Shown in pieces: positions 29,588-61,776 of a stretch of 64,000 bases of DNA. Position 1 is the first letter of the stretch. Each line of letters opens with the position of its first letter. Position numbers and translations under genes: made by a program. The stretch is from the NCBI GenBank assembly GCA_905202255.1, contig CAJKRH010000001.1, positions 18,940 through 82,939 of the forward strand, read 5' to 3'. The notes under the pieces are model-generated. The model searched no databases. It was given only the letters and a program-made list of their open reading frames with translations, and was not told the origin of the DNA. This DNA comes from an uncultured Ruminococcus sp. (lineage in GTDB: Bacteria > Bacillota > Clostridia > Oscillospirales > CAG-272).

Positions 29588-29764
29588 ATGAAAGCAACAG
29601 GAATCGTGCGGCGCATAGATGATCTCGGCAGGGTTGTCATTCCCAAAGAGATACGCCGTACAATGAGAATACGCGAGGGCGACCCGACGCTGACAACATT
29701 GACACCCGTTGCTCGATTCTTGTATGCTCTGATGGATTTATCCAAGAGAATTGGACTGAATTGA
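29588..29764 (+). pseudogene. spoVT: spoVT 5' fragment: 33 host codons, then 25 element-derived codons and a stop
   Basis: MKATGIVRRIDDLGRVVIPKEIRRTMRIREGDP is nearly identical to the Bacillus SpoVT N-terminus. GGAGG sits at 29573..29577. After 29686 the sequence reads TLTTLTPVARFLYALMDLSKRIGLN-stop. The ORF is under 60 aa, so it is absent from the track. Confidence 0.85.
29678..29685 (+). repeat. attL core GGCGACCC
   Basis: The identical 8-mer occurs in the same codon phase at 61315..61322. It contains a GA dinucleotide. Confidence 0.7.
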
Positions 29765-29783
29765 AGAAAACTACATAGGGAAA
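29721..29783 (+). repeat. 63-bp direct repeat, copy A
   Basis: 61 of 63 positions are identical to 32585..32647. The perfect run 29728..29775 equals 32592..32639. Confidence 0.9.
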
Positions 29784-29828
29784 GGGGCTGTAAAAAAGTC
29801 CCCGCTCTCTTGGAGAGTCCGTATTCCG

Positions 29829-30131
29829 ATGTGCCGAATCGCCCCGCAAGCGTCGCCTGAATCGAGGTCGAGAGCACGGCTGTTCGGTATCGAAGAAGAT
29901 TGGATGAAACACTTGGAGAACGGCGAGTACTTGTGTGCAGTGGAGATTTCTGCGAAACAAAATTATAACATGATCGACGGCAAGCGCAATAACACTGAGA
30001 CACCGAAAGAGGCAAAGTCGGGTAAAGATAAAATATCGCTTCTTGAAAGATTGAAAGAAAAACAGCAGCTTTTGATTTCGGGCACAAGAAAAGAGGATAA
30101 GGAAAAGAAAAGCGAGCGCGATTTGCCGTAA
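29829..30131 (+). pseudogene. C-terminal fragment of a DUF4316-like conjugative-element protein
   Basis: ...EEDWMKHLENGEYLCAVEISAKQNYNMIDGKRNN...ISLLERLKEKQ resembles the C-terminal module of large ICE proteins of Clostridia, recalled from memory. No credible N-terminus or RBS. Confidence 0.45.
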
Positions 30132-30139
30132 ACAGTTTG

Positions 30140-30252: not shown

Positions 30253-30281
30253 TTGACAAAGCCGACTTTGCACTGTATAAT
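30253..30281 (+). promoter_or_regulatory. Consensus promoter TTGACA-17 nt-TATAAT for the ATPase/RloB pair
   Basis: TTGACA at 30253..30258 and TATAAT at 30276..30281, separated by a 17-nt spacer. Confidence 0.65.
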
Positions 30282-30316
30282 ATACAGTAGGATTTTTATT
30301 GTGGGAGGACACGATA

Positions 30317-31492
30317 ATGCTGTTGCAATTTTCAGTAACGAACCATCGTTCCATAAAGGAAAAAGCAGTTATCAGCATGAAAGCAACTGCTGATAAATCG
30401 TTAAAAGAGTGCTTGATCAGCCCGGATGGAAAAAAAGAACTTGTCCCTGTTATGGCGATTTACGGTGCAAATGCCGCGGGCAAAAGTAATATGATTCAAG
30501 CTTTGCTTTTAATGCGTGATATGGTATGCGGTGAATACGCAAAACCGTTGAAAGGTGCGGAACTTCCGTGGGAACCGTTTGCCTTTACAGATGATAAAGA
30601 TGAAAGACCGACAGATTTTGAAATTATCTATTATTATGAGGGAACAAAATATGCTTACGGTTATTCCTTCAATAGAGACAGGATCATAAGCGAGTATCTT
30701 TATCATTGGCCCAATGGCAGAGAGGCGCTTGTCTTTTCGAGGGATAATGATAAATACGAGTTTCGTGAGAGTATTCAAGAGCAATTAACGCTTGCCGGAC
30801 GCACCTCTGAAAATCGCCTATATCTTACAAGCTCAAACGAGTGGAATTGTCCGCAGACGGAAAAGGCATATCTTTGGTTTCAAAGATATTTGCGCGGACT
30901 TATTGCAACAGGGGTATCTAACAACACTACACTTGATGCCATTCGTAAGGGTGGAGATAACAAGAACCGTGTTTTGGAAGAAATGATGTTTGCTGATTTG
31001 GGCATCTGTGATGTGGTATTGTCGGGAACAAAAGAAAAGCCGACGATAGCAACGGTCCACCAATTGGAAAAAGCGGACGGGAGCAAAAAACAGTATTCTT
31101 TGCTGTTGGGACAGGAATCAATGGGAACACAGCGATTCTTTTCACGAATCGGTTCTTGGATTGAATCACTTGAAGCCGGAGCTGTGCTTGTAGTAGATGA
31201 AATAGAGTCAAGTATGCATCCGCTTTTAACCAGACATCTGATTGAAATGTTTCAGGATCAGACAATAAATGATAAGCACGCACAGTTGATATTTACCACG
31301 CACGATACAGGCTTACTTGATTTGAAACTTTTGCGTCGCGATCAGATTTGGTTTGCAGAGAAAAACGAAAAAACAATGGGAACCGATATTTATGCCCTTA
31401 CTGAATTTTCTCCGAGAAAGGAAGAAAATATCGCACGAGGATACCTGCAAGGACGATACGGGGCAATTCCGTTTGTCGGAGGAGGTATCTGA
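30317..31492 (+). CDS. AAA/ABC-type ATPase (AAA_15/AAA_21-like), AbiLi-like
   Basis: MLLQFSVTNHRSIKE..., Walker A YGANAAGKSN and Walker B-like AVLVVDEIESSMHP. GGGAGGA RBS before ATG 30317. Confidence 0.75.
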   Translation: MLLQFSVTNHRSIKEKAVISMKATADKSLKECLISPDGKKELVPVMAIYGANAAGKSNMIQALLLMRDMVCGEYAKPLKGAELPWEPFAFTDDKDERPTDFEIIYYYEGTKYAYGYSFNRDRIISEYLYHWPNGREALVFSRDNDKYEFRESIQEQLTLAGRTSENRLYLTSSNEWNCPQTEKAYLWFQRYLRGLIATGVSNNTTLDAIRKGGDNKNRVLEEMMFADLGICDVVLSGTKEKPTIATVHQLEKADGSKKQYSLLLGQESMGTQRFFSRIGSWIESLEAGAVLVVDEIESSMHPLLTRHLIEMFQDQTINDKHAQLIFTTHDTGLLDLKLLRRDQIWFAEKNEKTMGTDIYALTEFSPRKEENIARGYLQGRYGAIPFVGGGI

Positions 31493-31493
31493 T

Positions 31494-32117
31494 ATGGGAA
31501 GAATCAAAGAGGTAGAACGCAGGAGTTTCGGCAGTCGAAAAAGAAATCCCGTTGTGTATCTGATTTGCGAAGGCTCAGAAACCGAAATTCGCTATTTCAA
31601 GAAATTTCGCAGCAGAGAGTGTCACATAGATATTGTTCCTATTCCGTCACAGTATAAATCTGCTGACAAGCTTGTTCAGAAAGCAAGATCAACCATTGCA
31701 ATGAATCCGTATTATCCCGATGAAGGCGACATTATTTGGTGCGTGTTTGACTGCGACGATAACACAAATCAAATGCTTGCGAAAGCAAAACAGGTTGCTA
31801 TAAAAGAGGGATATAAATTAGCCTTTTCCAATCCGTCTTTTGAGGTTTGGTTCTTGTTACACTTCAATAATCAGATTACACCGGTTGAAAATTGCGATGC
31901 AGCAATCAAGCTTTTGAAGCAGAAAGGGCGCTTGGAGCAGTATGAGAAAAACAAAAATGTGTATGATCAGCTCAAACCGCTGCAAGCTCTTGCGATAGAA
32001 AGAGCTAAAAACCGAGTATCGGTATTGAAAGAAGAACACACAGAAATCATTTCCAGACAAAGCAATCCGGCAACAACGGTTGCGGAGCTGGTGGAATACT
32101 TAAATAGCAAGCAGTAA
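31494..32117 (+). CDS. RloB-like protein, AbiLii-like
   Basis: MGRIKEVERRSFGSRKRNPVVYLICEGSETEIRYFKKF... and ...IWCVFDCDD...AFSNPSFEVWFLLHF are typical of the RloB family. The start overlaps the ATPase stop (TGATATG). Confidence 0.7.
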   Translation: MGRIKEVERRSFGSRKRNPVVYLICEGSETEIRYFKKFRSRECHIDIVPIPSQYKSADKLVQKARSTIAMNPYYPDEGDIIWCVFDCDDNTNQMLAKAKQVAIKEGYKLAFSNPSFEVWFLLHFNNQITPVENCDAAIKLLKQKGRLEQYEKNKNVYDQLKPLQALAIERAKNRVSVLKEEHTEIISRQSNPATTVAELVEYLNSKQ

Positions 32118-32718: not shown

Positions 32719-33093
32719 TTATTTCTCCCGTATCATGGTGCCAAAGCAAAACACCGCTACCGAGAAACCAAAGGCGACTATGGTCGAGTCCGTTGAAATC
32801 GTACCCATCAGGAAGCAGACGCAGGCGGCAAGCATAACTCCGACAGACAAAATGCGCGGCACCTCTCTTTTGACAGTTGAAAGAAATTTCAACCGTGTAT
32901 CCGCTTCATCTGCCGTCTGCTCAACCGGTAAACCGAGCAGTTCAGTGAGTTTACCAATGTGTGATGCGTCCGATTGCGGCAGTCCGCGCTCCCATTTCAA
33001 GACTGCTTTCCCCGATATGCCAAGCATCGCTCCGAGTGCATCCTGCGTCAGTCCCTTTTCTTTTCGCTTTTCCGCAATCATTTTTCCATCCAT
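32719..33093 (-). CDS. XRE-family HTH protein with C-terminal TM helices
   Basis: MDGKMIAEKRKEKGLTQDALGAMLGISGKAVLKWERG is the HTH, followed by hydrophobic ILSVGVMLAACVCFLMG and IVAFGFSVAVFCFG. GGAGG lies upstream of ATG 33093. Confidence 0.7.
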   Translation of the reverse strand: MDGKMIAEKRKEKGLTQDALGAMLGISGKAVLKWERGLPQSDASHIGKLTELLGLPVEQTADEADTRLKFLSTVKREVPRILSVGVMLAACVCFLMGTISTDSTIVAFGFSVAVFCFGTMIREK

Positions 33094-33140
33094 ATAAACC
33101 TCCGTAAACCATGTTGGTTGTGTGAGTATTATACACCAAC

Positions 33141-33331
33141 ATGTCAGCTTCCGAAACGGCAGCAAAGCGGGATTTTCATCTCGGCGTGTAGGGATTCTCT
33201 GCAATGAGGGTCGCATAGTCGGAGCGCAGAAAGCCGGAGCAACATGGATTATTGCGGAAGATGCCGAGAAGCCGAGTGATGCGAGAATAAAAAGCGGAAA
33301 ACATATTAAACTGAAAAAGAAGGTGAATTGA
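33141..33331 (+). pseudogene. Excisionase-like HTH_17 gene with a 1-nt frameshift
   Basis: ATG 33141 gives MSASETAAKR, then a stop. The +1 frame continues GFSSRRVGILCNEGRIVGAQKAGATWIIAEDAEKPSDARIKSGKHIK. One extra G in the GGG run at 33169..33171 would join the two frames. Confidence 0.5.
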
Positions 33332-34198: not shown

Positions 34199-34852
34199 TT
34201 AGCTTTTTATTTTCTTCTCAACACTCAACTTGAAGGTGCTGATTTTACTCGGAAGAATATACAGATAATCTATGATAGCCCCGACAAACTCTGTTGTGCG
34301 CTCAACCTCATATTTATAAAAGTCAATATCGTCCGCGTGAGCTGCACAATTGCCAAGTTGTCGAATTACCCAACACGCATCATCAAGCATTTCAGGTAGT
34401 ATCTTTTTGTCCACCAAGTCCTTAATCATTTTAGACAGGTCATTGCCGTCAGCACCTTTTTCCTTGCATATTGCTTCCAAAACTCTGCGGAGCGCAATCA
34501 AGCATAAAGGCGCGTCAATGTTTTTCACTTTCAAAGCCGCCTCAAATGCTCTTTGAATGTATTCGGGAACAGCGGCATCGCCATATTCCTTTATCTGAGG
34601 GTAACAATGCTCGGTCAAATCAATGCAGCCGCATTCTTCGTTCATTCCCTCTTTATACAGAGTCACATCACCGCATACCGGACAGGAAAGCAAACGCCAT
34701 TCTATTGTTTCAACAGGATCATAGTCAACAATATTGCCGTCCGCATCACGAACTTCTCCGCCGCACTTTGTTTTACACACGCCCTCAATATGCATAAGTC
34801 CGGTATTGCCGCAATGATAACAAGTCAGTAATTGCTGTTCTTTTTCTTCCAT
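34199..34852 (-). CDS. Zinc-ribbon plus DUF4145-like protein
   Basis: The N-terminus has CYHCGN...CPVCGD. The C-terminus AFEAALKVKNIDAPLCLIALRRVLEAICKEKG...IRQLGNCAAHADD fits the DUF4145 pattern. Confidence 0.65.
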   Translation of the reverse strand: MEEKEQQLLTCYHCGNTGLMHIEGVCKTKCGGEVRDADGNIVDYDPVETIEWRLLSCPVCGDVTLYKEGMNEECGCIDLTEHCYPQIKEYGDAAVPEYIQRAFEAALKVKNIDAPLCLIALRRVLEAICKEKGADGNDLSKMIKDLVDKKILPEMLDDACWVIRQLGNCAAHADDIDFYKYEVERTTEFVGAIIDYLYILPSKISTFKLSVEKKIKS

Positions 34853-34867: not shown

Positions 34868-36031
34868 CTATAATCCTACATTTTTCAATAAAGTCTTTGC
34901 TTCTGCCGCGGCATCATCTGAAATTGTACTGTTATATTTAAGTTCGTTCACTGTACGCTTTAAGTGCCCGCAGAAAATGAGCTTTCCCCAGCGGCGAACC
35001 TCCATGATCGGTGTGAGCCACTTATGCTTTTGGAGAATCGGGTAATGAAATTTTATTACATCATAGGGGATAAAAATTTTGGAAAGCGCATACCTCACTT
35101 TTCCGCCTTTCTTTTGTTGCTGTACAGCAACCCTGTTTGTGTTTGTTCCGTACACACCTCCGCGAAGAATATATCCTTCCATTTGCTTTGTGATTTCCGT
35201 ATGCTCTGCATTTCCAAACCAAACTTCAGATAAAAGCTCTGCCTGCTTTGCAAAAACGCCGAGTCCGCCGTCAGAAAGAAGCTTGTCCCGCTTCTCTCTG
35301 TCAAAGTCAATTCGGTGATTCAGAACCCATATATCGAGAAACGGACGGATACCACAGCCGCCTGTTTCAACAAAATGCTTTGCCATGTGCGCGATGTGAT
35401 AGAAATAGAACATTTCATCAGGCATTTCGTATTGATAATTACACCCGTCGTGCTTTACGACAACATTCCAAGCCCTCTTTAATACTTCCGCGGCGGAATT
35501 GGCTCTGCCATCTTCCACGAGATCATAATGCACTTCAATATGTACGCCACCTTGTGTAAACATAGAAATGTCGTGAGAATTTTGCGATTCACGTCTGTAT
35601 CCGAGATTGTCGGATAGATATGAAACCGTCCTTTGCAGATCTTCTGCGTGAACAAGAACGTCGATATCACAGCTTGTCCGCATCCACGGTTCGGGATAAT
35701 ACTGCCGTAAAACAGACCCTTTGAGCGGTATAAACGGGATTTCTGCTTGTTCAAGTGCCGCACACAACTTTGTCAACTCGTAATTGAGCTTTTCTAAGCG
35801 ATAAATCGCGATGAGCAGTTTGCTTTCAAGGTTTTTATTGCCCTCATCAAGCAACCCATTCTTTTTCAGTGCAAATACAATCAAATGTATGACGTCATGC
35901 TTTTGGGCAAGGGATGTGATTTCCGGTAAAATTTCCGGTCTGTACCGTGAAATTTCTTCACCTGAAAGACGACCGCCACAAACTGCCAAACGAAGCAGCG
36001 CGAACATCACCTTGCTTGTTTCTGTATTCAT
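34868..36031 (-). CDS. Uncharacterised nucleotidyltransferase family protein (NTP_transf_5-like)
   Basis: 387 aa containing ...FIPLKGSVLRQYYPEPWMRTSCDIDVLVHAEDL, an NTase-fold GS...D.D-type motif. Confidence 0.65.
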   Translation of the reverse strand: MNTETSKVMFALLRLAVCGGRLSGEEISRYRPEILPEITSLAQKHDVIHLIVFALKKNGLLDEGNKNLESKLLIAIYRLEKLNYELTKLCAALEQAEIPFIPLKGSVLRQYYPEPWMRTSCDIDVLVHAEDLQRTVSYLSDNLGYRRESQNSHDISMFTQGGVHIEVHYDLVEDGRANSAAEVLKRAWNVVVKHDGCNYQYEMPDEMFYFYHIAHMAKHFVETGGCGIRPFLDIWVLNHRIDFDREKRDKLLSDGGLGVFAKQAELLSEVWFGNAEHTEITKQMEGYILRGGVYGTNTNRVAVQQQKKGGKVRYALSKIFIPYDVIKFHYPILQKHKWLTPIMEVRRWGKLIFCGHLKRTVNELKYNSTISDDAAAEAKTLLKNVGL

Positions 36032-36052
36032 GGCGATCTTCCTTTCTTATAA

Positions 36053-37291
36053 TTAATCCCGTCTGAAAATGTCTCTTGTATAAACTTTGTCGGCTACATC
36101 GTCAAGGCAGCTGTCATATCGGTTGGCGATAATGGCATTGCACATAGCCTTGAATTTTTCAAGATCGTTGACAATCTCGCTGCCGAAAAAAGTTTCGCCG
36201 TCCTTTAATGTCGGTTCATAAATAACAACCGTTGCACCCTTGGCTTTAATGCGCTTCATTACACCTTGAATGGACGACTGACGGAAGTTATCGGAATTAG
36301 ATTTCATCGTCAGACGATACACACCGATCGTCACAGGCGTTTCCTTTGCTTTGCTGTAAGCGTTATCCTCTTCATAACCGTAGTAATCTGCCATGCGAAG
36401 TACACGGTCGGCAATAAAGTCTTTACGCGTCCGGTTGGATTCCACAATAGCCTCAATAAGGTTTTCCGGCACATCGGCATAGTTGGCAAGCAGCTGTTTG
36501 GTATCTTTCGGCAAACAGTATCCTCCGTAACCGAAGGACGGGTTGTTATAGTGGTTGCCGATACGCGGATCAAGGCACACACCTTCAATGATTTGCTTGG
36601 TGTCAAGTCCTTTCATTTCGGCATAGGTGTCAAGCTCGTTGAAATAGGAAACACGCAGGGCGAGATATGTATTGGCAAACAGTTTTACCGCTTCTGCTTC
36701 GGTGAAACCCATAATCAGGGTATCAATGTTCTCTTTGATTGCACCCTTCTGCAAGAGCTTTGCAAAATCGTTTGCGGCTTTGACAAGTCTTTCATCACTC
36801 ATATCCGTACCGACAATAATGCGGCTGGGATAGAGGTTGTCATAAAGAGCCTTTGATTCGCGGAGAAACTCCGGACTGAAAATGATGTTATTGCAGTCAT
36901 ACTTTGCTCTGACCGCTGCTGTAAATCCGACCGGGATTGTGGACTTTATGACCATGATCGCATTCGGATTGTACTGCATAACAAGTTTGATGACCGATTC
37001 AACCGCAGAGGTGTCAAAGAAATTTTTCTGACTGTCATAATTGGTCGGCGCGGCGATAATAACAAAATCTGCGTCCTTGTACGCGCTTTCCGCGTCAAGC
37101 GTTGCCACAAGATCAAGTTCTTTTTCCGCAAGATATTTTTCTATATATTCGTCCTGTATAGGCGATTTTCTTTGGTTGATCAATTCCACCTTTTCCGGAA
37201 TGATGTCAACCGCTTTTACTTTATTGTGCTGTGCCAAAAGTACCGATATTGATAAGCCGACATAGCCGGTTCCGGCAACTGCAATGTTCAT
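36053..37291 (-). CDS. ugd: UDP-glucose 6-dehydrogenase
   Basis: [14 protein letters not shown] is a Rossmann motif, and [10 protein letters not shown] is the catalytic Cys motif. 412 aa. Confidence 0.9.
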
Positions 37292-37306
37292 ATTCTTCCC
37301 CTCACA

Positions 37307-38755
37307 TTATTTTCTTTTTAATACTTTTCCGACCAACTGCGCTGCGGACACCGTTATGTTTTTTACATCTGTATAGTTAAGTGCGATGATAGCAACGCAT
37401 AGCAACAAATAAACGATATATGAACCAGGAACCTCATAAACAATCAGCGTACAGCCGACCACAGCTAAAATATAGGTGGCTATCGTTTGCGGTAAACGAA
37501 TCTTCACTTTTACCAGCTTTTGAATGGTGTACATTCTGACCACCCATGTGACAAAAAAACTTGCCGCCGTCGCGATGGATGCTCCTATCACACCGACTGT
37601 TTTTATTAAAACCAAGTTTAAGACGATGTTTACTGCCGCGCCGACAGCTACAGATACAAACAACTGTCCTGTCTTTTTATAAGCACGGAATGCCGATGCC
37701 AAAAAGCCGCACAAGCAGGAGAAGAACGCCGACAAGGTGAGAAACGGTATGTGCCGCCACGCGGAAAAGTAACTCGGATCAAACAAAATCGACGATACGA
37801 TTTTTGACAGAGGAATAATAAACAAACAGCCGACAAGCGAAACAATGTGCATATTTTCGTATACCTTGGTATAATATGCGGATTCATCGGCATCGTTCAC
37901 ATTGGAAATCGCCGACAATTGCCACGCCTGCGTAAAGATGGACAATACCGCAGTCAGCAAAGAAGGAATTTTGTTTGCAACACTGAAAATACCGGAAGCG
38001 CTCAACCCTTCCCCCGCCGGCAGAAGTCCGATAAGCATATATTTGTTGATATACATATTGATAGACCATGCAAGGAGTGTAGGGATCATAGGAATACTGT
38101 ATTTCAGCATTTCCTTTAAAAGTTTTCCGTCCAAAGCAAAGGGGAACAGAAGTTTATAGATGCCGCCGGCAAAAAACATCAGCACGGTCGGAACGGCAAA
38201 TCCGATGACGATGCTCAGCAAATAACCCTGAAGCCCTGTTTTGGCAACAAGCAAAAAGTATATGTTGCATACAATCACCGTAACGGTTTGAACAATTCCC
38301 TGAACGGCAAACAGTTTGGTTTTTTCTAAACCTTTAATAAAATTGGAAAAGCATAAATGAATGTTATACATCGCATAGGTAGAGACAAAATACCACCAAT
38401 AGTGAGAAAGCTGTAATGAGATTTCCGAGTTCATCACAGTGATGACTGGATAAAAGGCGAGCAGCAAAAAGACGGAAAGAACGGTGATGACGATCGAATT
38501 TCCGAACACCGCTCTTTTAGAACAATTTTTATCCAGGGCATACCGCAAGGTGGCATCTGTGATTGCCAGGGTGAGAACAGGATAAATCAGATTTACGGTT
38601 GTGTTGATTAAATCGGCAATGCCGTATTCTTCCGTCAGCAAGACCGCCGTATACAACGGGGTCAATAAAAACACAAGAATTTTGGAACCGAATGTACTGA
38701 TACCGAATAGTATCGTATCGGTCGCGAGCCGTTTTGTTTTTGATGGTGTGGACAT
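37307..38755 (-). CDS. wzx: Wzx-type oligosaccharide flippase (MOP superfamily)
   Basis: 482 aa with about 12-14 hydrophobic helices. Located in a polysaccharide cluster. Confidence 0.75.
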   Translation of the reverse strand: MSTPSKTKRLATDTILFGISTFGSKILVFLLTPLYTAVLLTEEYGIADLINTTVNLIYPVLTLAITDATLRYALDKNCSKRAVFGNSIVITVLSVFLLLAFYPVITVMNSEISLQLSHYWWYFVSTYAMYNIHLCFSNFIKGLEKTKLFAVQGIVQTVTVIVCNIYFLLVAKTGLQGYLLSIVIGFAVPTVLMFFAGGIYKLLFPFALDGKLLKEMLKYSIPMIPTLLAWSINMYINKYMLIGLLPAGEGLSASGIFSVANKIPSLLTAVLSIFTQAWQLSAISNVNDADESAYYTKVYENMHIVSLVGCLFIIPLSKIVSSILFDPSYFSAWRHIPFLTLSAFFSCLCGFLASAFRAYKKTGQLFVSVAVGAAVNIVLNLVLIKTVGVIGASIATAASFFVTWVVRMYTIQKLVKVKIRLPQTIATYILAVVGCTLIVYEVPGSYIVYLLLCVAIIALNYTDVKNITVSAAQLVGKVLKRK

Positions 38756-38776
38756 AACTATTCCCTTTTCATACGT

Positions 38777-39439: not shown

Positions 39440-39462
39440 AAATATGCACTTCCTCTCATTGA

Positions 39463-40755: not shown

Positions 40756-40775
40756 ATAGGACCTCCGCAAGAAAA

Positions 40776-49653: not shown

Positions 49654-49674
49654 ATATGTAACCCCTTGACAAAT

Positions 49675-50952: not shown

Positions 50953-50957
50953 AAATT

Positions 50958-53297: not shown

Positions 53298-53747
53298 TCA
53301 TGCCCCGCATAAAACCTTATAGCGAAACCGAATTAACCCGACAACCCTTGAAAAATCTATGTTTTTCTTGGTTGCCTCTATTATATCTCTCTCCCCGATG
53401 ATGCTCATTTTGCCCGTGAAAATATTGAAAAGTTGCGGCAATTCGTCTATACTCATTTTTCGCATCCACCGCCCGCATTTAAGTATATACTGCTCCGGAT
53501 TTTCAAGCATATGCGTCGGCATATCATGCGGTGTAGACATTTTCATACTTCGGAATTTGAGCAAACCGAACTGCGTTTTATGTATACCGATTCTCTTTTG
53601 TCTGAAAAATACGGGACCCGGATCCTCTGCTTTTATGATAAATGCGAAGACAATCATCGGCAAAGCCAAGACAACGATCCCGATGAAAGACAACACTATA
53701 TCAATCAACCGTTTAAAAAAATGCCTATACATTTTCGTTGAAACCAA
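53298..53747 (-). pseudogene. Truncated second sugar transferase
   Basis: It matches the sugar transferase family through ...MSIDELPQLFNIFTGKMSIIG, then loses the PRP motif and ends at 149 aa. Intact members are about 200-230 aa. Confidence 0.55.
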
Positions 53748-54185: not shown

Positions 54186-54893
54186 TTATACCCTCCCCAA
54201 AACTCTTCCGCAGCAGAACACGCTGTCATGCTCGGAGAGGCGTATGGGCTTATACTTTTCGTTATGCGAGATCAGGCAACCGTTCCCGCGCTCCTTGATG
54301 AAGACATCGCCGTTGACAACGAAGATACCGATCTCGCCGGCATCGACGGAGTCGCATTTTTCAACAAACACCTTGTCTCCGTCATGGTAGGTCGGCTCCA
54401 TGCTGTCGCCGCCAACAGAAATCACGAAGTCCGCCTTCTCCGCTTCCTTGGATTCGGGAACAAGAATCTCTTCGGCAATCTCGCTGTCAAGAATATTGCC
54501 CGTACCTGCGGAAGCCGGAAGCGTGTAATAATCCATTCTCAGCATACGGCACTTGGCTTTCCTGACGGTTGCGGCTACTCGCCTGTACTCGCTGTCAATA
54601 AGATAATTCACGATTTCTTTACCGTGTTCGTCAAGGACGCGGTATTTTTTTATCGTCTCCCATTCGGCAGCCGTAGGACGTTCCGACATCGACCTGCAAC
54701 CGATCATCTCGTCTGCGGATACACCGAGAAGGTTACAGAGCTTCGCCAGCTTGTCACAATCGGGGCGACCGATTCCCTTTTCCCAGTTGTATATCACCCT
54801 GCCGGAGCTTTCGCCGAGCGCATCGGCAATCTCCTGTTGCGTCATGCCGCGGATACCTCTGTATTTTTTAATCTGTTCGCCTATTACGCTCAT
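54186..54893 (-). CDS. CI/LexA-like repressor (XRE HTH plus S24 peptidase domain)
   Basis: IKKYRGIRGMTQQEIADALG is the HTH. The C-terminal VGGDSMEPTYHDGDKVFVE...VFIKE carries the S24 Ser/Lys dyad context. Confidence 0.8.
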   Translation of the reverse strand: MSVIGEQIKKYRGIRGMTQQEIADALGESSGRVIYNWEKGIGRPDCDKLAKLCNLLGVSADEMIGCRSMSERPTAAEWETIKKYRVLDEHGKEIVNYLIDSEYRRVAATVRKAKCRMLRMDYYTLPASAGTGNILDSEIAEEILVPESKEAEKADFVISVGGDSMEPTYHDGDKVFVEKCDSVDAGEIGIFVVNGDVFIKERGNGCLISHNEKYKPIRLSEHDSVFCCGRVLGRV

Positions 54894-54924
54894 ACCGAAT
54901 TCCTCCGAATTTTATTACGCATAC

Positions 54925-54953
54925 AGTATACCACATCTCATTGTAGTTGTCAA
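54925..54953 (-). promoter_or_regulatory. Promoter for the repressor (TTGACA-17 nt-TATACT)
   Basis: On the minus strand TTGACA at 54953..54948 and TATACT at 54930..54925. Confidence 0.55.
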
Positions 54954-54983
54954 GAACAAATACAATTATTTTGTGCGCAGCTA

Positions 54984-55012
54984 TTGACAACACAATATTC
55001 TTGTAGTATAAT
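54984..55012 (+). promoter_or_regulatory. Divergent consensus promoter (TTGACA-17 nt-TATAAT)
   Basis: TTGACA at 54984..54989 and TATAAT at 55007..55012. The two -35 boxes form the inverted repeat GTTGTCAA/TTGACAAC. Confidence 0.6.
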
Positions 55013-55042
55013 ATCAAATACACAACGAGAAAGGAGAACAAT

Positions 55043-55330
55043 ATGGCGGGCAAGCGAAAAAACTTCTTTATGGTTGACAACAGAATCTTTGAATACGGTC
55101 TGAAACCGCGGGACATCGCCGTCTATTGTTTTCTTTGTCGTCGTATGAACCGTGAAAGCAATGTGGCTTTTCCTTCCCGGAGAGATATCGCAAACGGGTG
55201 CGGAATCAGGAAAGAGGAAACCGTGGACAAGGCAATTAAATCTCTTCTCGAAAAAGACCTGATTGAAAAATTTCACCGATACACGAATGCGGGCGATTAC
55301 GGCTCCAACGTGTATCGGCTGAAAATGTGA
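55043..55330 (+). CDS. Winged-helix DNA-binding protein
   Basis: 95 aa containing ...FFMVDNRIFEYGLKPRDIAVYCFLCRR...FPSRRDIANGCGIRKEETVDKAIKSLLEKDLIEK. Confidence 0.6.
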   Translation: MAGKRKNFFMVDNRIFEYGLKPRDIAVYCFLCRRMNRESNVAFPSRRDIANGCGIRKEETVDKAIKSLLEKDLIEKFHRYTNAGDYGSNVYRLKM

Positions 55331-55550
55331 CCGGGTGGTGTCTGAAATGGTGGTGCTAACAAGAAATCTTAACCATATATCTTATATGCAGAAGAGAACA
55401 ATAAGTTATATAGGCTAATTCGCGGTTTTTTCTTCTGCACTTATTCCCGGCGCTCTGCGTCCGGGGTTGTGGCAAGCATAGCGCGTGGATGTCCACCGCC
55501 TTTCGGCGGCACACTTCCCGCACACAATCGGGCAGAAGCCCGAACCCACT

Positions 55551-55578
55551 TACCTTTTCTTTGCGAAAAGAAAAGGTA
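55551..55578 (+). promoter_or_regulatory. Candidate oriT hairpin
   Basis: A perfect 12-bp inverted repeat, TACCTTTTCTTT-GCGA-AAAGAAAAGGTA, lies 60 nt upstream of the mobC-like start. Confidence 0.4.
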
Positions 55579-55638
55579 ATCCAAAAGAACCGAATCAGAG
55601 AAGCAACAGCAAAAAAACATGTGCGAAAGGAGAAACCG

Positions 55639-55956
55639 TTGAGCAGAAAACAAACAGAAACCCTGACCATTCGCCTCACAGCGGAAGAAAAAATGGAGTT
55701 GCAGAAGAAAATGTACGAAGCCGTCTCACCTTCCATGCGCGATTTCATTCTCAAAATGTGCCGTGACGGGAAGATTATTGTCAATGAAGAGCTGCGGGAG
55801 CTGAACCGTGAACTGAAATATCAGGGCAACAATCTCAATCAGCTCACGCGGCTGGCACATCAGAATCGTTTTTCTTCTGCCGATCTTTCACAGCTTCTTT
55901 CGGTTTACAGAAAAATTCTTGCAGCACTCGGAGGGCAAAATCATGGCGGTTGTTGA
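55639..55956 (+). CDS. mobC: MobC-like relaxosome accessory protein
   Basis: A TTG start lies 7 nt after AGGAG. (L)SRKQTETLTIRLTAEEKMELQKKMYEAVSPSMRDFILKM...LKYQGNNLNQLTRLAHQN is the MobC pattern. The upstream part of the tracked ORF overlaps hairpins. Confidence 0.7.
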   Translation: MSRKQTETLTIRLTAEEKMELQKKMYEAVSPSMRDFILKMCRDGKIIVNEELRELNRELKYQGNNLNQLTRLAHQNRFSSADLSQLLSVYRKILAALGGQNHGGC

Positions 55957-57349
55957 AAGCATTCCGGAAAAAGTACAGACGCCGAGCGCACAGAAAGGTG
56001 TGCTTGATTACTGTATGCAACCGTCAAAAACCTTTGACGAGGGCGAACAGCTTGCGTATATTTCCGGCTACAACTGCATTCCCGAGATGGCAAACGAATC
56101 GTTCCTCGCCACTCAAAAGGTGTTCGGTCATGCGGCGGGCGGCGTTCGTTTCTATCATTTCGTGCAGTCTTTTATGCCCGGAGAGAATATTTCTCCGCAG
56201 GAGGTCAACGAAATCGGGGTGGAGCTTATCAAAAGCTTCGGCAACCGTGAAGCAATCATCGCCACGCATATCGACCGCGAGCATCTGCACAATCACATTG
56301 TCGTATGCACCTATGACCTTGTTGACGGTCGGAAACTGCATTACAATAAATTTTTCCTTGCCGATTTGCGAAAAGCGAGCGATGAAATCTGTCAGGCTCA
56401 CGGGCTGAAAGTACTTCGGGAATACGATCCGAACGTTAAATCCCAACGCATGAAGCCGAAGGAATATCGCGCGGCACTGAACGGCAACAGCATGAAAATG
56501 GCACTCTGCGCAACGATTGATTTCTGTATGACAAAGGCAAAAACGCGGAACGAGTTTCAAAGTGAAATGAAAAAGTACGGTTATGAAATGGTATGGACTC
56601 CCGAGAGAAAGTACATCACCTACATCCTCCGCGGCAGGGACGGAACGGAAAAGCGCGTGCGTGACAAGAGTTTATTTGATGAAAAATACCGAAAGGAGAA
56701 CATGGAGCATGAATTCAGAATCCGGGAAGAGCTATATGGACAAGCTCAAAGCAAAGAATATTCCGCCGCAAATTCAGGCGGAAATGCAGACGGAAGAAGA
56801 AATACCGACGGTGCAGATCAGCGTCGCGGAGTGGGACGAGCTGATCGCTTCGGTGAGCCGTTTGGAGGAGCTTTCAGCCGAGCTGACGGCGCAGAGGACG
56901 GCTTTTGCGGCGGAGGCAGGCAAGTATACCGAACAGATTACGAAGGCGATACAGGCGCAGAACGAGGCGACAGCGGCAGCGATACGGAAGATTTCGGAGG
57001 ACGCCTCCGAACAGGTTGGGAAAGCGAGCGAAAAAGCCTCGAAACTTATCTGCAGAAGAAGCATACGGGACGACGCACTGTGGTGGCTTCGCATGGCGTA
57101 CGCGGCAATTCCGATGATACTGACCTTGCTCTTATGGGCATACGTGGGCTTGAAAGCCTGACGGATATTCTTGAAGACGGCGATGAATCCGAGGAAGAAA
57201 AGCGGGAGCGAGAAGCAAGAAATACAGGAACCGCTCTCGGCATTGCCGCCGGAGTTATTGCCGGCATGGCAATCGGACTCGGGCAAGATGAGGACGGAGA
57301 TATTGAAGAAGACGAGGATGAAAACGAAGACTTCGGAATGACAATGTAG
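55943..57349 (+). CDS. Relaxase/mobilization nuclease (MobA/VirD2 family)
   Basis: The N-terminal domain carries the histidine motif ATHIDREHLHNHIVV. GGAGGG RBS. The C-terminal part is low complexity with TGWESER and ends ...EDFGMTM, as recalled for Clostridia relaxases. Confidence 0.8.
   Translation: MAVVESIPEKVQTPSAQKGVLDYCMQPSKTFDEGEQLAYISGYNCIPEMANESFLATQKVFGHAAGGVRFYHFVQSFMPGENISPQEVNEIGVELIKSFGNREAIIATHIDREHLHNHIVVCTYDLVDGRKLHYNKFFLADLRKASDEICQAHGLKVLREYDPNVKSQRMKPKEYRAALNGNSMKMALCATIDFCMTKAKTRNEFQSEMKKYGYEMVWTPERKYITYILRGRDGTEKRVRDKSLFDEKYRKENMEHEFRIREELYGQAQSKEYSAANSGGNADGRRNTDGADQRRGVGRADRFGEPFGGAFSRADGAEDGFCGGGRQVYRTDYEGDTGAERGDSGSDTEDFGGRLRTGWESERKSLETYLQKKHTGRRTVVASHGVRGNSDDTDLALMGIRGLESLTDILEDGDESEEEKREREARNTGTALGIAAGVIAGMAIGLGQDEDGDIEEDEDENEDFGMTM
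56709..57161 (+). CDS. Candidate nested gene in an alternative frame inside the relaxase gene (coiled coil plus C-terminal TM helix)
   Basis: AAAGGAGAA lies 10 nt upstream of ATG 56709. The 150-aa product is MNSESGKSYMDKLKAKNIPPQ...AEWDELIASVSRLEELSAELTAQRTAFAAEAGKYTEQITKAIQAQNEA...ALWWLRMAYAAIPMILTLLLWAYVGLKA. Confidence 0.4.
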   Translation: MNSESGKSYMDKLKAKNIPPQIQAEMQTEEEIPTVQISVAEWDELIASVSRLEELSAELTAQRTAFAAEAGKYTEQITKAIQAQNEATAAAIRKISEDASEQVGKASEKASKLICRRSIRDDALWWLRMAYAAIPMILTLLLWAYVGLKA

Positions 57350-57594: not shown

Positions 57595-57840
57595 ATGGAG
57601 ATGAACATTCATCATGACAGCAAAACGGTCGATATATGGCTCACCGGAAGCGAGGCGCGGGACGAAAGCTTCCGTCGCTCGCTTGAGCCGTATTACCGGC
57701 AATTTGCGAAGCACAAGTATTTTGTGTCGGTGTTTGAATCGGGCGACCGGGAGCTGTTACCGGATACCGTCCTGCTCCTCCGCCACAATCTTGAGCTTCA
57801 GATGAAAGCCGAACCTGCGACAGAGCAGGTTCAGGCGTAA
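57595..57840 (+). CDS. Hypothetical small protein
   Basis: Open frame with GAGGTGG upstream. The start is ambiguous (57586 GTG, 57595 ATG or 57601 ATG). No recognisable motif. Confidence 0.45.
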   Translation: MEMNIHHDSKTVDIWLTGSEARDESFRRSLEPYYRQFAKHKYFVSVFESGDRELLPDTVLLLRHNLELQMKAEPATEQVQA

Positions 57841-57910: not shown

Positions 57911-59197
57911 TCAGTTTTTCAGAGCCGTAATCGAGACGACAAAAACACCGTCCGGGCGGACATATGCCGCATTGGAGAGCCCGCAGATGACGCAAAGAAC
58001 CGACGGAGCCACGCCTCCGTTCTTCTCAATATCGTTGCGAAGTGCAACAAGTTCTGTTGCGGCTTTATCGATTTGGTTGGCACCGAGCTTTATCTCAAAC
58101 GCGCACCATTTTCCGTCCTTCAATTCAACCACCGCGTCAATTTCCTTGTTGTTGTAGTCCTGATAATGATACAGGTTCGCCCCGAACGACTCGGCATAAA
58201 TCTTCAGATCGCGTTCCACCAGAGCTTCAAACAGAAATCCAAAGGTTTCAAGGTCGCCGATCAGCTTATCCGGAGTGGCTTTCAGCAAGGCACAGGCAAG
58301 CGCGGGATCGCAGAAATGTCTTTTTTCGGCTTGCTTCACGCGAACGGAAGAACGGATATTTGCAGAAAAAGGAAGTTGATTGTCAAGCAGAAAAAGACGG
58401 TTGAAAACATCCAGATACGTGGCTATCGTGTCCATATCGATTGCTTCATCATCAAATTCGCGGATATCGTTCAGCAGTTTTTTCTTGGTAGCCGTTGTGC
58501 TTTCGTTGCGGGCAAGGGAGCGCAGAAGAAGACGCATTTTTGCCACATCATATTTTTTGCCGTCAATGCTCTGTGAATCATCGTCAAGTATGGCATCAAG
58601 ATAGGATTGCGGCAACAGCGAAGCATTTTCCGGCGTAACATTCAAGTTCCCGGGCCATCCTCCGCGTACCGTATAATATGCAAGGTCACGCAGACTGACC
58701 TCGCCTGTCATTGCCGGGGTAATCTTGCCATTGCAGAGCTCTTCCAATGAAACAACGCCCCCGGATTCACCGGACTCATAAAGAGACATGGTGCGCATGC
58801 GCAATCTTCCGATTCTGCCGGCACCGCTGTGAAGAACCCCCTTGCGTTTTGGTGTGGAGGAGCCGGTCAGAATAAACTGCCCCTTTTCCGCCCGACCGTC
58901 AACCGTGTACCGAACTGCATCCCAGATTGAGGGAACCTCCTGCCACTCGTCAAGCAGACGCGGCGTTTCGCCTTCCAGAACAATGGACGGAGACATTTCC
59001 GCCAATGCACGGTTCTGAAAATTGTTTGCAGGATCACCGATTAAAAACTCACTTTTGCTATGAAATGAAGAAGTCCATGTTTTCCCGCACCATTTGGGAC
59101 CTTCGATACACACCGCGCCGAAGGCGGACAAATATCTGCAAACTGCGCTGTCGATAACACGCGGCTTGTATTTCGATGGTTCAGCGATTTTTTTCAT
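57911..59197 (-). CDS. AAA_14/DUF4143-type ATP-binding protein
   Basis: Walker A IEGPKWCGKTW, a Walker B-like segment and a C-terminal DUF4143-like region. 428 aa. Confidence 0.7.
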   Translation of the reverse strand: MKKIAEPSKYKPRVIDSAVCRYLSAFGAVCIEGPKWCGKTWTSSFHSKSEFLIGDPANNFQNRALAEMSPSIVLEGETPRLLDEWQEVPSIWDAVRYTVDGRAEKGQFILTGSSTPKRKGVLHSGAGRIGRLRMRTMSLYESGESGGVVSLEELCNGKITPAMTGEVSLRDLAYYTVRGGWPGNLNVTPENASLLPQSYLDAILDDDSQSIDGKKYDVAKMRLLLRSLARNESTTATKKKLLNDIREFDDEAIDMDTIATYLDVFNRLFLLDNQLPFSANIRSSVRVKQAEKRHFCDPALACALLKATPDKLIGDLETFGFLFEALVERDLKIYAESFGANLYHYQDYNNKEIDAVVELKDGKWCAFEIKLGANQIDKAATELVALRNDIEKNGGVAPSVLCVICGLSNAAYVRPDGVFVVSITALKN

Positions 59198-59510
59198 AAC
59201 AAAATACCTCCGGATTGTTTTTCACATATATTATAACCCATTCCTTGATATTTTGCAAGCCTATTCCGAGAAATTTTGAAATTTCATTCGGTATAATTTT
59301 GAATATTCATTCCGTGAGATTTTGAATTACAGCATTGAAAATGCTACGCTTATTATAGCACGTTGACCTCAAAAGTCAGCAAAAGTTGAAATCATAAACT
59401 TCTTTATTTCAAAAAATCGTGTTTTATTGAAACAAACCGGCGAACCGCGCCTTGTTAATTTCAAAATTCCACGGCAAATGATAACAATTCATGTCTTTGC
59501 AAATATCTCA

Positions 59511-59539
59511 TTGACAGCGGGCGGGTTTTGTGATACAAT
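59511..59539 (+). promoter_or_regulatory. Promoter of the recombinase gene (TTGACA-17 nt-TACAAT with TG extension)
   Basis: TTGACA at 59511..59516, TG at 59531..59532 and TACAAT at 59534..59539. Confidence 0.6.
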
Positions 59540-59574
59540 GTTATCAGCAATACATCAAAGGAGTGATTATCAAT

Positions 59575-61776
59575 ATGGTTGAAAGGTTCCGCATTGCCGC
59601 GTACACGCGAATCTCCGTAGACCTGGAGCTTGACCGCGATAACACGAGTATCGAAAACCAGAAGGCAATCATAGACGAATACTGCCGTCTGCACTTTCCG
59701 ACAAGCACGGTCGATTACTTTGAGGATCGCGACAAATCGGGCTACACCTTCGAGCAACGCCCCGATTACATGCGTATGCGCGAAAAGCTCATGCAGCGCG
59801 AATACGATATACTTATCATCAAGGACCTGAGCCGTTTCTCGCGAAGAACCGGCAAAGGTCTTGCCGAATTTGAGGATCTTGCCGAGCGCGATATCCGCAT
59901 CATTGCCATCGGCGACGGGGTGGATTATTATCAGGATCACATCGACGACTGGATGAAGATCAAGCTCTACTTCTTCGTCAACGAAATGCCCGTCACAGAC
60001 ACGAGCCGCAAGGTGTCCGACGTCATTGCCTCACGGCAGTCAAAGGGCGAGTGGATATGTTCGGTTCCCTTCGGCTATGTCATCACCAACTCCAAGAAAA
60101 TGACCTTTGAGGTCGACGAGCCGTCCGCCGAGGTAGTGCGGCGCATATTCAACTATTATATCGACGGCTGGGGCTATAAAAAGATTGCAAACCATCTGAC
60201 AGACGAGCATATCCCCACGCCGCGAATGCGGGAAAAAGCACGCAAGGAAGCGCAGGGCGACGAGTACAAAGGCAAGGTAAAGGAAACATGGAGCATCGTG
60301 ACCGTCTCCGAAATTCTCTGCAACGACTTTTATATCGGCACACTGCGTCAGCACAAATTCAAGCGGAAAAAGATAAACGGAAACGATGTGCCGCTCGACG
60401 AAAGCCAGCATATCGTGTTTGAAAACCATCACGAGCCGATTGTTGACTACCGCACCTTTGCCGTCGCTCAGGAGCTGTTGAAGCAACGCACGACCACCCA
60501 CTACCGCGGTCAGAAGAAGTACGCCAACAACTACTCCGGCTACCTCTTCTGCGGTGACTGCGGCTCGCCGATGTTCTCGCGTAGCCGTCCCGACCTTGCC
60601 GACGCTTACATCTGCGGAACCTATCACACGCGCGGCAAAGCTGGATGCACGACGCATCACATCCGCGTGGATGTGCTTGACCGTGAGCTGAAACGGTACA
60701 TCACCAAGGTCTGCGAGAATTCCGAAAAAATGATAAAACAGCTGGAAACCGAAATCAGCTTTGAGCCGAATGCGGTGAAGGACAGCGCCAAAGCCGCGGA
60801 GGAGCTTTCAAAGCTCATCGAGCAGGAAAAGGATTCGCTCAAAATCCTGATGCGGCAAAAATCCCGCGACCTCTCCCGCGCAAAGGGAAACGAGGACGTC
60901 ATCATGGAAACCTACGACGCGCTGATTGAGGAAAGCGCCAACCGGATTCACGGGTTGGAAAATCAGATCGCCATGACGGCAGATACGAGAAATACCATCA
61001 TCAGAGCCAACCGCCATGCAAAAACGGTGCTGGAGATCTTCCACGATATTCTGAGCAAAGAAAAGCTGGACAAGCGCGACATCGGGCTGATTGTTGACCG
61101 CATCATCGTATATGAAAACCGCATCGAAATCAAGCTGCGTGGTGATGTGGACGCGCTCCTGCGCTGTGACGATGAGGTACAGGAGGAGGCAATCGCAAAT
61201 TTTAACGGGGACACGGAGAATATCGAAAGAACCACAGAAAAATACAACTCTGTGGTGGTTCAATCAGCAAAAAACCAAGCTGATAAGGTTTTTCGTGTCA
61301 ATGTTATCAGTGGCGGCGACCCTCTCGAAATATATACCGACCGCGAAGGCGAAGTTATCTTCAAAAAATATTCACCGATAGGCGAACTGATGGATTTTGC
61401 GGCAAGCTATGCGGAAACGCTTTATAAGACCTGCAATTTCCCCGTAGCCGTCTGCGATAAGGATTGCGTTATCGCCTGCGCGGGAATATCGAAAAAGGAA
61501 TTTCTCGACAAGAAAAATTCAGAAGAAGCAGAAAAAATTATCGAAAACAGAAGTCTTTATACGCATGCACCGACTAAGGAGAAAATTTATCTGACGGAAG
61601 AAAGCCGCGGCTGGTATATTTCATGTGCCATGCCTATCTTTGCCGAGGGTGATGTTATCGGCTGTGTTGCGGCGCTTGCAAATGCCGAATCCGGAAAAGA
61701 CAATGCCGCCACGGAAACCGAAACAAAGCTTATCCAGACGGCGGCAGGCTTTCTCGGCAGACAGCTCGAGGCTTGA
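59575..61776 (+). CDS. Large serine recombinase, open through attR into the spoVT 3' portion
   Basis: MVERFRIAAYTRISVD is the catalytic Ser context. A recombinase domain, a zinc ribbon (CGDCGSPM...CGTYHTRGKAGC) and a long coiled coil follow. There is no stop before 61774. The last 153 codons or so are SpoVT-like. Confidence 0.85.
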   Translation: MVERFRIAAYTRISVDLELDRDNTSIENQKAIIDEYCRLHFPTSTVDYFEDRDKSGYTFEQRPDYMRMREKLMQREYDILIIKDLSRFSRRTGKGLAEFEDLAERDIRIIAIGDGVDYYQDHIDDWMKIKLYFFVNEMPVTDTSRKVSDVIASRQSKGEWICSVPFGYVITNSKKMTFEVDEPSAEVVRRIFNYYIDGWGYKKIANHLTDEHIPTPRMREKARKEAQGDEYKGKVKETWSIVTVSEILCNDFYIGTLRQHKFKRKKINGNDVPLDESQHIVFENHHEPIVDYRTFAVAQELLKQRTTTHYRGQKKYANNYSGYLFCGDCGSPMFSRSRPDLADAYICGTYHTRGKAGCTTHHIRVDVLDRELKRYITKVCENSEKMIKQLETEISFEPNAVKDSAKAAEELSKLIEQEKDSLKILMRQKSRDLSRAKGNEDVIMETYDALIEESANRIHGLENQIAMTADTRNTIIRANRHAKTVLEIFHDILSKEKLDKRDIGLIVDRIIVYENRIEIKLRGDVDALLRCDDEVQEEAIANFNGDTENIERTTEKYNSVVVQSAKNQADKVFRVNVISGGDPLEIYTDREGEVIFKKYSPIGELMDFAASYAETLYKTCNFPVAVCDKDCVIACAGISKKEFLDKKNSEEAEKIIENRSLYTHAPTKEKIYLTEESRGWYISCAMPIFAEGDVIGCVAALANAESGKDNAATETETKLIQTAAGFLGRQLEA
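61315..61322 (+). repeat. attR core GGCGACCC
   Basis: Identical to 29678..29685, in the same codon phase (GAC CCn). Confidence 0.7.
61315..61776 (+). pseudogene. spoVT: spoVT 3' portion (GAF-like C-terminal domain)
   Basis: GDPLEIYTDREGEVIFKKYSPIGELMDFAASYAETLYK...IFAEGDVIGCVAAL...ETKLIQTAAGFLGRQLEA parallels Bacillus SpoVT from residue 31 or so to its end. Confidence 0.85.

Follow-up and report, generated by a model that had tools for sequence, protein, structure and literature searches.

The window analysed here, a stretch of 64,000 nt from contig CAJKRH010000001.1, carries a 31.6-kb mobilizable island with capsule-synthesis and anti-phage genes inside the spoVT gene of a human-gut Clostridia bacterium. 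All unlabelled coordinates given below are positions in this window, and L and P numbers denote contigs and proteins, respectively, from sequence collections. The island is presumably a polymorphic, horizontally spreading and site-specific integrative mobilizable element (IME), which would keep SpoVT switched off while resident, leave its site precisely and be excised, probably, in connection with its own transfer; we assign this reading as a whole a probability of roughly 0.7.

The 5' fragment of spoVT (29588-29685, forward strand) comprises codons 1-33, which form part of the AbrB-type DNA-binding domain. The stretch 29588-29686 encodes MKATGIVRRIDDLGRVVIPKEIRRTMRIREGDP, after which the frame runs through 25 unrelated codons to a stop codon at 29762-29764. 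The 3' fragment (61323-61776, forward strand), which comprises codons 34-183 with the remaining AbrB domain and the GAF-like SpoVT_C domain, is located at the opposite end of the island, where in the integrated state it forms the C-terminus of a serine recombinase as part of a 733-aa fusion protein. The recombinase lies in a 748-codon open reading frame (ORF; 59530-61776) that reads in frame into LEIYTDREGEVIFKKYSPIGEL...GRQLEA and whose likely start is the ATG at 59575, where its homologues begin.

Joining 29588-29685 to 61323-61776 in silico results in 552 nt with an ORF of 183 codons. The predicted product contains the Pfam domains MazE_antitoxin (residues 7-50) and SpoVT_C in full length (residues 54-182, E = 4e-37). 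It aligns over residues 1-182 with SpoVT of B. subtilis (crystal-structure sequence of PDB 2W1T; E = 1.8e-51) and over its entire length (residues 1-183) with 80 intact spoVT genes from metagenome-assembled genomes of uncultured gut Eubacteriales, Clostridia and Oscillospiraceae. The original prediction, made from the sequence of the window, had described the split gene with both halves and an 8-bp core in matching codon phase, and had proposed that a precise deletion of 29686-61322 would restore a 183-codon gene. All of its coordinates were verified, the alignment with B. subtilis SpoVT and with the intact genes, a check set beforehand, extends from end to end, and the rebuilt protein as well as its attB occur in identical form in natural empty-site contigs.

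The 8-bp core GGCGACCC is present at 29678-29685 and at 61315-61322 in identical codon phase. In the left attachment site, attL (29655-29715), the core is followed by the P' half-site CTGACAACATTGACAC (29690-29705), and the similarity to empty-site contigs ends precisely with the last base of the core; in the right attachment site, attR (61292-61352), the P half-site GTGTCAATGTTATCAG (61295-61310) precedes it. In the rebuilt attP these half-sites form the arms of an inverted repeat with 15/16 matching positions, and with 4 nt between each arm and the core, the repeat is centred on the GA of GGCGACCC, between GGCG and ACCC. The GA dinucleotide that had been suggested as the crossover is therefore the symmetry centre of attP. 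Of the imperfect dyad symmetry that had been claimed for both sites, the part concerning attP is strong, whereas that of attB turned out to be weak. Recombination between attP and attB takes place at the 8-bp core, most likely at its central GA. A 12-mer of the half-site occurs three times in the 64 kb, in the two arms and in the recombinase promoter, compared to 0.35 occurrences expected by chance.

The point of integration corresponds to codons 31-33 of spoVT (Gly-Asp-Pro), the most conserved stretch of the gene. Among 90 intact spoVT genes variation of the core is confined to the wobble positions of Gly31 and Asp32, the exact sequence GGCGACCC being present in 48 of them, and the central GA, which is fixed by the Asp codon, is invariant. 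Scans of the window for tRNA, tmRNA and Rfam families gave no match, so the site in spoVT is not an attachment site of the RNA-gene type.

In a first homology search with the joined SpoVT the closest intact allele reached 89% identity. This ceiling was only apparent, because clustering had hidden the intact protein in a cluster represented by a 733-aa fusion. The exact joined protein was detected as P0241 in a collection of 15 billion proteins, located on 24 gut metagenome contigs, together with a one-residue variant (P0242). The empty-site contigs L107-L114 carry an intact spoVT followed by a gene encoding a 697-aa leucine-rich repeat (LRR) lipoprotein, as is also found downstream of spoVT in the window. 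Positions 5862-6098 of L107 correspond to 29448-29685 and its positions 6091-8776 to 61315-64000 (92.5% identity), the 8-bp overlap being the core, and its empty site reads ...CGCGAGGGCGACCCTCTCGAAAT..., identical to the predicted attB. The sister lineage represented by L081, whose SpoVT is 89% identical, is likewise colinear with the window, with an empty site and a break at the core. Furthermore, the occupied contigs L085, L086 and L090 share 98.5-99.3% identity with the empty contigs L107-L109 and L113 over 2.4 kb of the upstream flank, ending at the last base of the core. The element is a presence/absence polymorphism within one species. The search for element-free alleles in relatives had also been fixed in advance, and it yielded such alleles with the site sequence as predicted. 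Judged by these natural empty alleles, excision would be precise and would restore the 183-codon gene.

The occupied state is widespread. AttL was detected in at least 23 contigs and attR in 10 contigs, originating from independent samples and assemblers, and the product of the attL-spanning ORF is listed in 742 collection blocks from several host species. Breaks in metagenome contigs are frequent about 60-70 nt into the element, at which point its variants start to differ. Across three host backgrounds the left end shares 97.6-98.9% identity, although the flanks are only 92.4% and 82.5% identical to the window. The proteins P0003 and P0004, whose recombinase part is 97% identical to that of the window, and P0005 and P0006 (87%) carry an identical SpoVT_C part which differs from that of the window. 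Since recombinases of 97% and 87% identity occur in one host species and share one SpoVT_C, this part follows the host and not the recombinase. Together, these comparisons argue for horizontal movement with strict site specificity.

The element-encoded part of the large serine recombinase (LSR; 59575-61322, forward strand) comprises 583 codons, the third base of the last one being shared with the core boundary. It was predicted by Pfam to contain the domains Resolvase (PF00239), Recombinase (PF07508) and a zinc ribbon (PF13408) as well as a coiled coil and an extension at the C-terminus. Among solved structures, SprA/YokA of SPbeta is the closest (E = 2e-19); the catalytic domain of TnpX also matches. 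As both partners read through the core in frame, integrated and excised elements encode different proteins, and because the LSR gene spans attP, integration exchanges the 25-aa tail of the recombinase for 150 residues of SpoVT. The recombinase gene is rewritten by its own reaction: the integrated state encodes only the LSR-SpoVT_C fusion of 733 aa, and the excised circle only an LSR of 608 aa with its native tail of 25 aa. The tail, TLTTLTPVARFLYALMDLSKRIGLN (29686-29764, forward strand), represents the last 25 codons and the stop codon on the circle and is fused in the integrated state to SpoVT(1-33), giving a product of 58 aa. It appears to be a real coding sequence, as the motif TTLTPx(D/A)(K/R)FxxA(I/L)(H/M) is kept in five diverged attL and attP copies and extends beyond the DNA half-site. 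Relatives in the attP state that end with this tail are L101 from a metagenome, P0296, P0302 and P0289, the latter from a free phage genome.

All 120 of the 120 best LSR homologues (72-98% identity) are in-frame LSR-SpoVT_C fusions, one of them being shorter only due to the end of its contig; the homologues take this form because the LSR gene spans attP. Among the 50%-identity representatives, full-length fusions are still found at 60, 54 and 52% identity, the SpoVT sequences of their hosts being quite different. In P0318 (558 aa), another LSR fusion, the SpoVT_C part runs out of frame after about 25 residues, which may reflect a decayed split spoVT or a sequencing frameshift. The members share a conserved backbone of mobC, relaxase, the gene of an 81-aa protein, a variable gene and the LSR, and differ in their cargo, which includes type I restriction-modification systems, Fic and other polysaccharide genes. 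Together they make up a large family of elements dedicated to spoVT.

As a side observation, the contigs L120-L123 (Logan contigs, 27-71 kb) represent a phage genome encoding NrdD, dUTPase, HNH and lysins together with a 46%-identical LSR in the attP state. The LSR of the phage contig L120 ends with the conserved tail and is directly preceded by a gene for a small protein of the 81-aa type; its core region reads REGEG and not REGDP, and its target may therefore differ. Since a free phage genome carries such an LSR, the LSR clade is common to phages and IMEs. Among named phages and plasmids no close relatives of the LSR were found, the two best matches labelled as phage being unverified fecal virome scaffolds. 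L124 (GenBank MT836658.1, "Bacteriophage sp.") is a chromosomal fragment on which an LSR-SpoVT_C fusion is followed by recN, argR and the genes of NAD kinase, tlyA and dxs. Its viral label was rejected, the contig being an integrated member of the family misfiled as viral.

The element itself consists of 31,637 bases (29686-61322). Its first gene downstream of the spoVT promoter (29829-30131, forward strand) encodes a small DUF4316 protein (Pfam, E = 1e-9), which is found in most elements of the window type and is absent from L088. It is followed by an AbiL abortive-infection system (30299-32117, forward strand) consisting of AbiLi (AAA_21 ATPase; PADLOC, 4e-93) and AbiLii (RloB domain; PADLOC, 1e-27) with its own consensus promoter of the sigma-70 type (30253-30281), and on the reverse strand by an HTH_3 (XRE-type) regulator (32719-33216) and a DUF4145 protein similar to PD-T7-4 (34199-34852), which is a candidate for a defence function. 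About 19 kb of cargo on the reverse strand (34868-53747) were assigned by Pfam to a Wzx/Wzy-dependent polysaccharide (capsule or exopolysaccharide) cluster. It encodes a UDP-glucose dehydrogenase, a flippase (37307-38755), a Wzy polymerase (42857-44122) and glycosyltransferases of the GT1 and GT2 types, and furthermore a pyruvyl transferase, a C5-epimerase, an aminotransferase, a Polysacc_synt_2 protein and an initiating transferase. The cluster also contains a truncated second initiating sugar transferase (53298-53747, 118/179 profile positions) and a half-length GT1 glycosyltransferase (46127-46666), both of which are signs of a mosaic reshuffling of the cargo. The cargo varies even among elements in one host lineage (L083, L087, L088, L089).

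The mobilization module on the forward strand comprises the genes of an HTH_36 protein (55043-55330), a NikA/MobC accessory protein (55489-55956) and a MobA/VirD2 relaxase (55919-57349). It is divergent from the gene of a LexA/CI-like repressor with HTH_3 and the autocleavage domain Peptidase_S24 (54186-54893, reverse strand), and MobC and relaxase genes also adjoin the LSR in L103, L115 and L117. The gene of the conserved 81-aa protein (57595-57840, forward strand), a candidate recombination directionality factor (RDF) or other accessory factor of the LSR, is separated from the LSR by the gene of an AAA_14/DUF4143 ATPase (57911-59197, reverse strand; defence candidate PDC-S01), a variable slot that is occupied by Fic or other genes in other members. 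No family of type IV secretion or coupling proteins was detected among the scanned ORFs of the element. Because it encodes its own LSR and a MobC/relaxase module and no conjugation apparatus, the element is best classified, by its gene content, as an IME.

Concerning the control of recombination, the LSR is preceded by a promoter of the near-consensus housekeeping type (59511-59547, forward strand; TTGACA-17 nt-TACAAT with an extended -10 TG), which is conserved in L105 and L117. The third exact copy of the half-site, CAATGTTATCAG (59536-59547), overlaps the -10 region of this promoter (59511-59539), which suggests that the LSR represses its own gene. The 81-aa protein is the sole small protein that is always linked to this LSR clade: its identity amounts to 73% in L117 and to 40% in L115, and in the chromosomal member L124 (49% identical) as well as in the phage contig L120 the gene of a protein of its type immediately precedes the LSR. 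Only 71 homologues of the 81-aa protein were found. Its gene ends the HTH_36-mobC-relaxase operon opposite the S24 LexA/CI-like repressor.

The spoVT gene of the host has a promoter of the forespore type (sigma-G/F; 29502-29530, forward strand; GCATA-17 nt-AACAATA), which after integration is directed into the element's left end. It was compared with the sigma-G consensus of B. subtilis, and the motif G[CT]ATA-17/18-xAxxxTA precedes the ATG by 60-90 nt in 61 of 89 spoVT loci. Upstream of the LSR gene and the 81-aa gene a motif scan, which is weak evidence by nature, detected no promoter of the forespore or sporulation type. Apart from this, the P' arm contains a TTGACA which forms part of a sigma-70-like match (29699-29728; TTGACA-18 nt-TATGCT, 10/12) directed towards the DUF4316 gene and which would exist in both the integrated and the excised state.

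Taken together, the LSR would integrate the element at codons 31-33 of spoVT via attP x attB recombination at the 8-bp core. Given the two state-specific proteins, excision would be catalysed by the 733-aa fusion and integration by the tailed LSR of 608 aa, provided that no other recombinase acts in trans. Excision presumably requires a directionality factor, for which the 81-aa protein (57595-57840) is the best candidate, and its most likely trigger would be the element's own transfer switch, which is probably responsive to DNA damage; after excision the element could be mobilized by a co-resident conjugative element. A coupling of excision to transfer appears more likely than a sporulation-timed trigger since the 81-aa gene ends the mobilization operon opposite the S24 repressor. 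While the element is resident, the host encodes the 58-aa SpoVT(1-33)-tail peptide but no SpoVT with an intact DNA-binding domain, so that the function of SpoVT is presumably switched off. The common carriage of the element is explained by its polysaccharide cluster, AbiL and the other defence genes.

Several observations weigh against the island being such a transfer-coupled IME. Recombination, excision and transfer are all predicted from sequence. The attP junction of a window-type element was not found: a degenerate attP pattern of the excised circle had no match in IMG/VR and a single one in metagenomes, which derives from a different family member (L101), and an exact-sequence look-up of three versions of the 608-aa LSR gave no match, a result that is uninformative as to absence. 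The 81-aa protein is named as RDF candidate for its gene linkage; it has no Pfam match, and its AlphaFold model of mediocre quality (pLDDT 69.5) no matching fold in the PDB.

The host, moreover, looks like a spore former. An intact SpoIIE phosphatase gene of 811 aa is located 10 kb upstream of spoVT (17229-19664, forward strand; Pfam SpoIIE PF07228, E = 4.8e-53, with an N-terminal 5TM domain), which indicates that the host has, or recently had, a sporulation programme, and no copy seen shows damage to either half of spoVT or to the promoter. In comparison with the intact gene of L081 the SpoVT C-part has a dN/dS of 0.07 (0.03-0.11 in controls between intact genes) at a saturated dS of 1.26, so the insertion is not datable and may be recent. 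In the window's own lineage, which is recognised by the radical-SAM peptide cluster upstream, every contig reaching spoVT is occupied, so that it would be somewhat surprising if a sporulation regulator were simply and permanently knocked out. B. subtilis without spoVT still makes spores, though altered ones, whereas C. difficile requires SpoVT for mature spores; since the need for spoVT differs between these species, the cost of the insertion is not predictable.

A further point on the same side is provided by attL-type remnants consisting of the spoVT promoter, about 33 codons, the P' arm and the conserved tail, which are located 0.7-1.2 kb upstream of a complete spoVT in at least five lineages (L035 2932-3108; L068 47-307; L043 2515-2640; L072 1785-1961; L014 about 2839-2925), with one or two genes on the minus strand between remnant and complete gene. 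In L035 the colinearity with L065 ends at the core, followed by the P' arm, one gene and the complete spoVT; this gene is 72% identical to that of L065, although the genomes are otherwise 91% identical, and the copy is foreign to the host. These loci could have arisen from a replacement spoVT carried by the element, from cassette-like recombination or from repair by homologous recombination. Their occurrence hints at selection to regain SpoVT, and together with the host features it appears to leave room for a regulated excision. On L101 (1202-3070) we also noted an LSR in attP configuration followed by an attL-type site and a third start of spoVT.

A regulated excision of this kind could be developmental. 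The element would then leave spoVT in the forespore and restore the gene, the non-replicating circle would be kept in the non-dividing spore, and the tailed LSR, driven by sigma-A, would reintegrate it at germination, that is, a switch as in skin or SPbeta but working in the germ-line compartment. The retained SpoIIE gene, the normal constraint on both spoVT halves, the high frequency of the occupied allele (742 collection blocks, several species) and the occupation of all own-lineage contigs reaching spoVT are in accordance with such a switch, and the forespore-type spoVT promoter reads through the SpoVT(1-33)-tail ORF and DUF4316. Moreover, systems of LSR and RDF are inherently reversible, and this is the logic of all published intervening elements (PMC4191935, PMC5595907, PMC10747680). 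However, neither the LSR gene nor the 81-aa gene nor any other part of the recombination module was found to have a sporulation-type promoter, the promoter of the LSR being of the housekeeping type, and the candidate RDF is tied in with the mobilization operon and the S24 repressor. No break at the core is seen in the own-lineage contigs, which means that attB was not abundant in the stool samples concerned, and the attP form of the element was not found. In addition, L088, a same-lineage element, lacks DUF4316, and with element-free strains in the same species the element is not obligatory for development. Thus, the excision in the germ line restoring SpoVT that the original prediction had proposed was not established, and we regard developmental excision as unlikely, yet as the foremost alternative. 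A germ-line switch in which the swap of the C-terminus, possibly along with the 58-aa SpoVT(1-33)-tail peptide, helps to set the direction of recombination seems somewhat more doubtful still.

Another alternative would be compensation by an intact spoVT elsewhere in the genome or, in some variants, carried by the element, which would make the split copy irrelevant to sporulation. The remnant and the complete divergent spoVT of L035, and the similar loci in L068, L043, L072 and L014, fit this explanation, but the 64-kb window including the whole element contains no second spoVT-like sequence. Compensation appears improbable.

The size of about 32 kb, the LSR and its 46%-identical relative in a phage genome might call to mind a prophage of the skin or SPbeta type. 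However, a PHROGs scan of ten large ORFs and the Pfam analysis detected no phage structural, packaging or lysis families (capsid, portal, terminase, tail, lysis), the attP scan of IMG/VR was empty, and all large ORFs represent polysaccharide, defence or mobilization genes, so that a prophage identity was rejected as extremely improbable. An assembly chimera at one or both junctions, a worry raised beforehand, can be dismissed with equal assurance, as attL (at least 23 contigs) and attR (10) each occur in many independent contigs from different samples and empty-site contigs join the flanks exactly at the core.

Regarding the neighbourhood of the island, a cluster similar to those for ribosomally synthesised and post-translationally modified peptides (RiPPs) is located directly upstream of spoVT (20572-29289). 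It encodes an ABC exporter with C39 peptidase, a second ABC transporter, a sigma factor similar to the extracytoplasmic function (ECF) type, several small ORFs, one of them weakly Nif11-like, and a radical-SAM/SPASM maturase. In the sister lineage both empty and occupied strains carry smpB in place of this cluster. The region upstream of smpB represents a second insertion hotspot (L085 1-3604; L086 1-3431; L109 384-3020; L113 311-1488), which depending on the contig contains a relaxase element, phage lysis genes, an S24 repressor or a RepA_N gene. The S24 repressor region of the window (54193-55069) is 94% identical to L109 1318-2194. Downstream of spoVT no tandem repeats were found, the ORF-poor appearance being caused by the long LRR lipoprotein gene running off the window.

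SpoVT governs late forespore gene expression and the quality of the spores. An abundant and spreading island in Oscillospiraceae-like bacteria of the human and animal gut could decide on normal spore formation, and an effect on spore formation would alter the host-to-host transmission of these strict anaerobes. As the same island alters the capsule and phage resistance, surface variation, defence and sporulation would be inherited as one polymorphic locus. Furthermore, the family constitutes a natural collection of cleanly defined LSR/attP/attB pairs whose common target is a coding site with almost no variation. Should the germ-line switch turn out to be true, it would provide the first case of an intervening element at work in the forespore and the first example of an LSR for which the integration state feeds back on the direction of recombination; the question of whether intervening elements work in the germ-line compartment is now testable.

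The literature searched contains no link of spoVT to an attachment site or to an intervening element; such elements have been published in sigK (skin), spsM (SPbeta), spoVFB (vfbin), spoVR (vrin), gerE (gin) and yabG (yin), and the non-phage gin shows that they need not be prophages (PMC4191935, PMC5595907, PMC10747680). The spoVT island resembles elements of the skin, SPbeta and gin type as an LSR element within the coding sequence of a sporulation gene whose predicted precise excision by attL x attR recombination rebuilds the ORF. In line with the original prediction, all targets of developmental elements in the literature searched are mother-cell genes, and excision there therefore spares the germ line. 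In contrast, the target of the spoVT island has a forespore-type promoter and does not belong among these mother-cell targets. Unlike the intervening elements, the island is also mobilizable with a relaxase, polymorphic and recently transferred between species; no sporulation-specific control was detected, and its recombinase ORF extends across attP into spoVT. In both B. subtilis and C. difficile SpoVT acts as a regulator in the forespore, its gene being sigma-G dependent in B. subtilis.

The clostridial mobilizable transposons Tn4451/Tn4453 (TnpX) and Tn5397 (TndX) are comparable with respect to the LSR, the probable GA crossover, the circular intermediate and a mobilization without conjugation apparatus. 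The similarity of the LSR to TnpX is weak (E = 9e-8, catalytic domain only), and these transposons differ by their relaxed target choice and their resistance genes, whereas the spoVT family is strictly single-site. With Tn4451 the family also shares that the state of the element alters how the recombinase is made. In Tn4451 the joint of the circle creates the tnpX promoter; thus, the state changes the promoter in Tn4451 and the C-terminus of the recombinase in the spoVT family.

In the case of the Listeria phage phi10403S/A118 in comK a reversible and precise excision serves as a genetic switch without loss of the element (active lysogeny). This phage resembles the spoVT island as an LSR element in a regulatory gene. 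It differs as a phage with a different target gene and biology and by the fact that its switch has been demonstrated experimentally, whereas a switch is only conceivable for the IME in spoVT.

The closest counterpart to the rewriting of a gene upon integration is provided by the mycobacteriophages BPs and Brujita, in which attP is located inside a coding gene and integration replaces the C-terminus of the encoded protein (PMC3694055, PMC4557955). Similar to the spoVT family, their integrated and free states result in different forms of a protein. However, the gene concerned encodes the repressor in these phages and their integrase is a tyrosine recombinase, whereas in the spoVT family it is the serine recombinase gene itself that spans attP, and the new C-terminus is a folded domain of the host, SpoVT_C.

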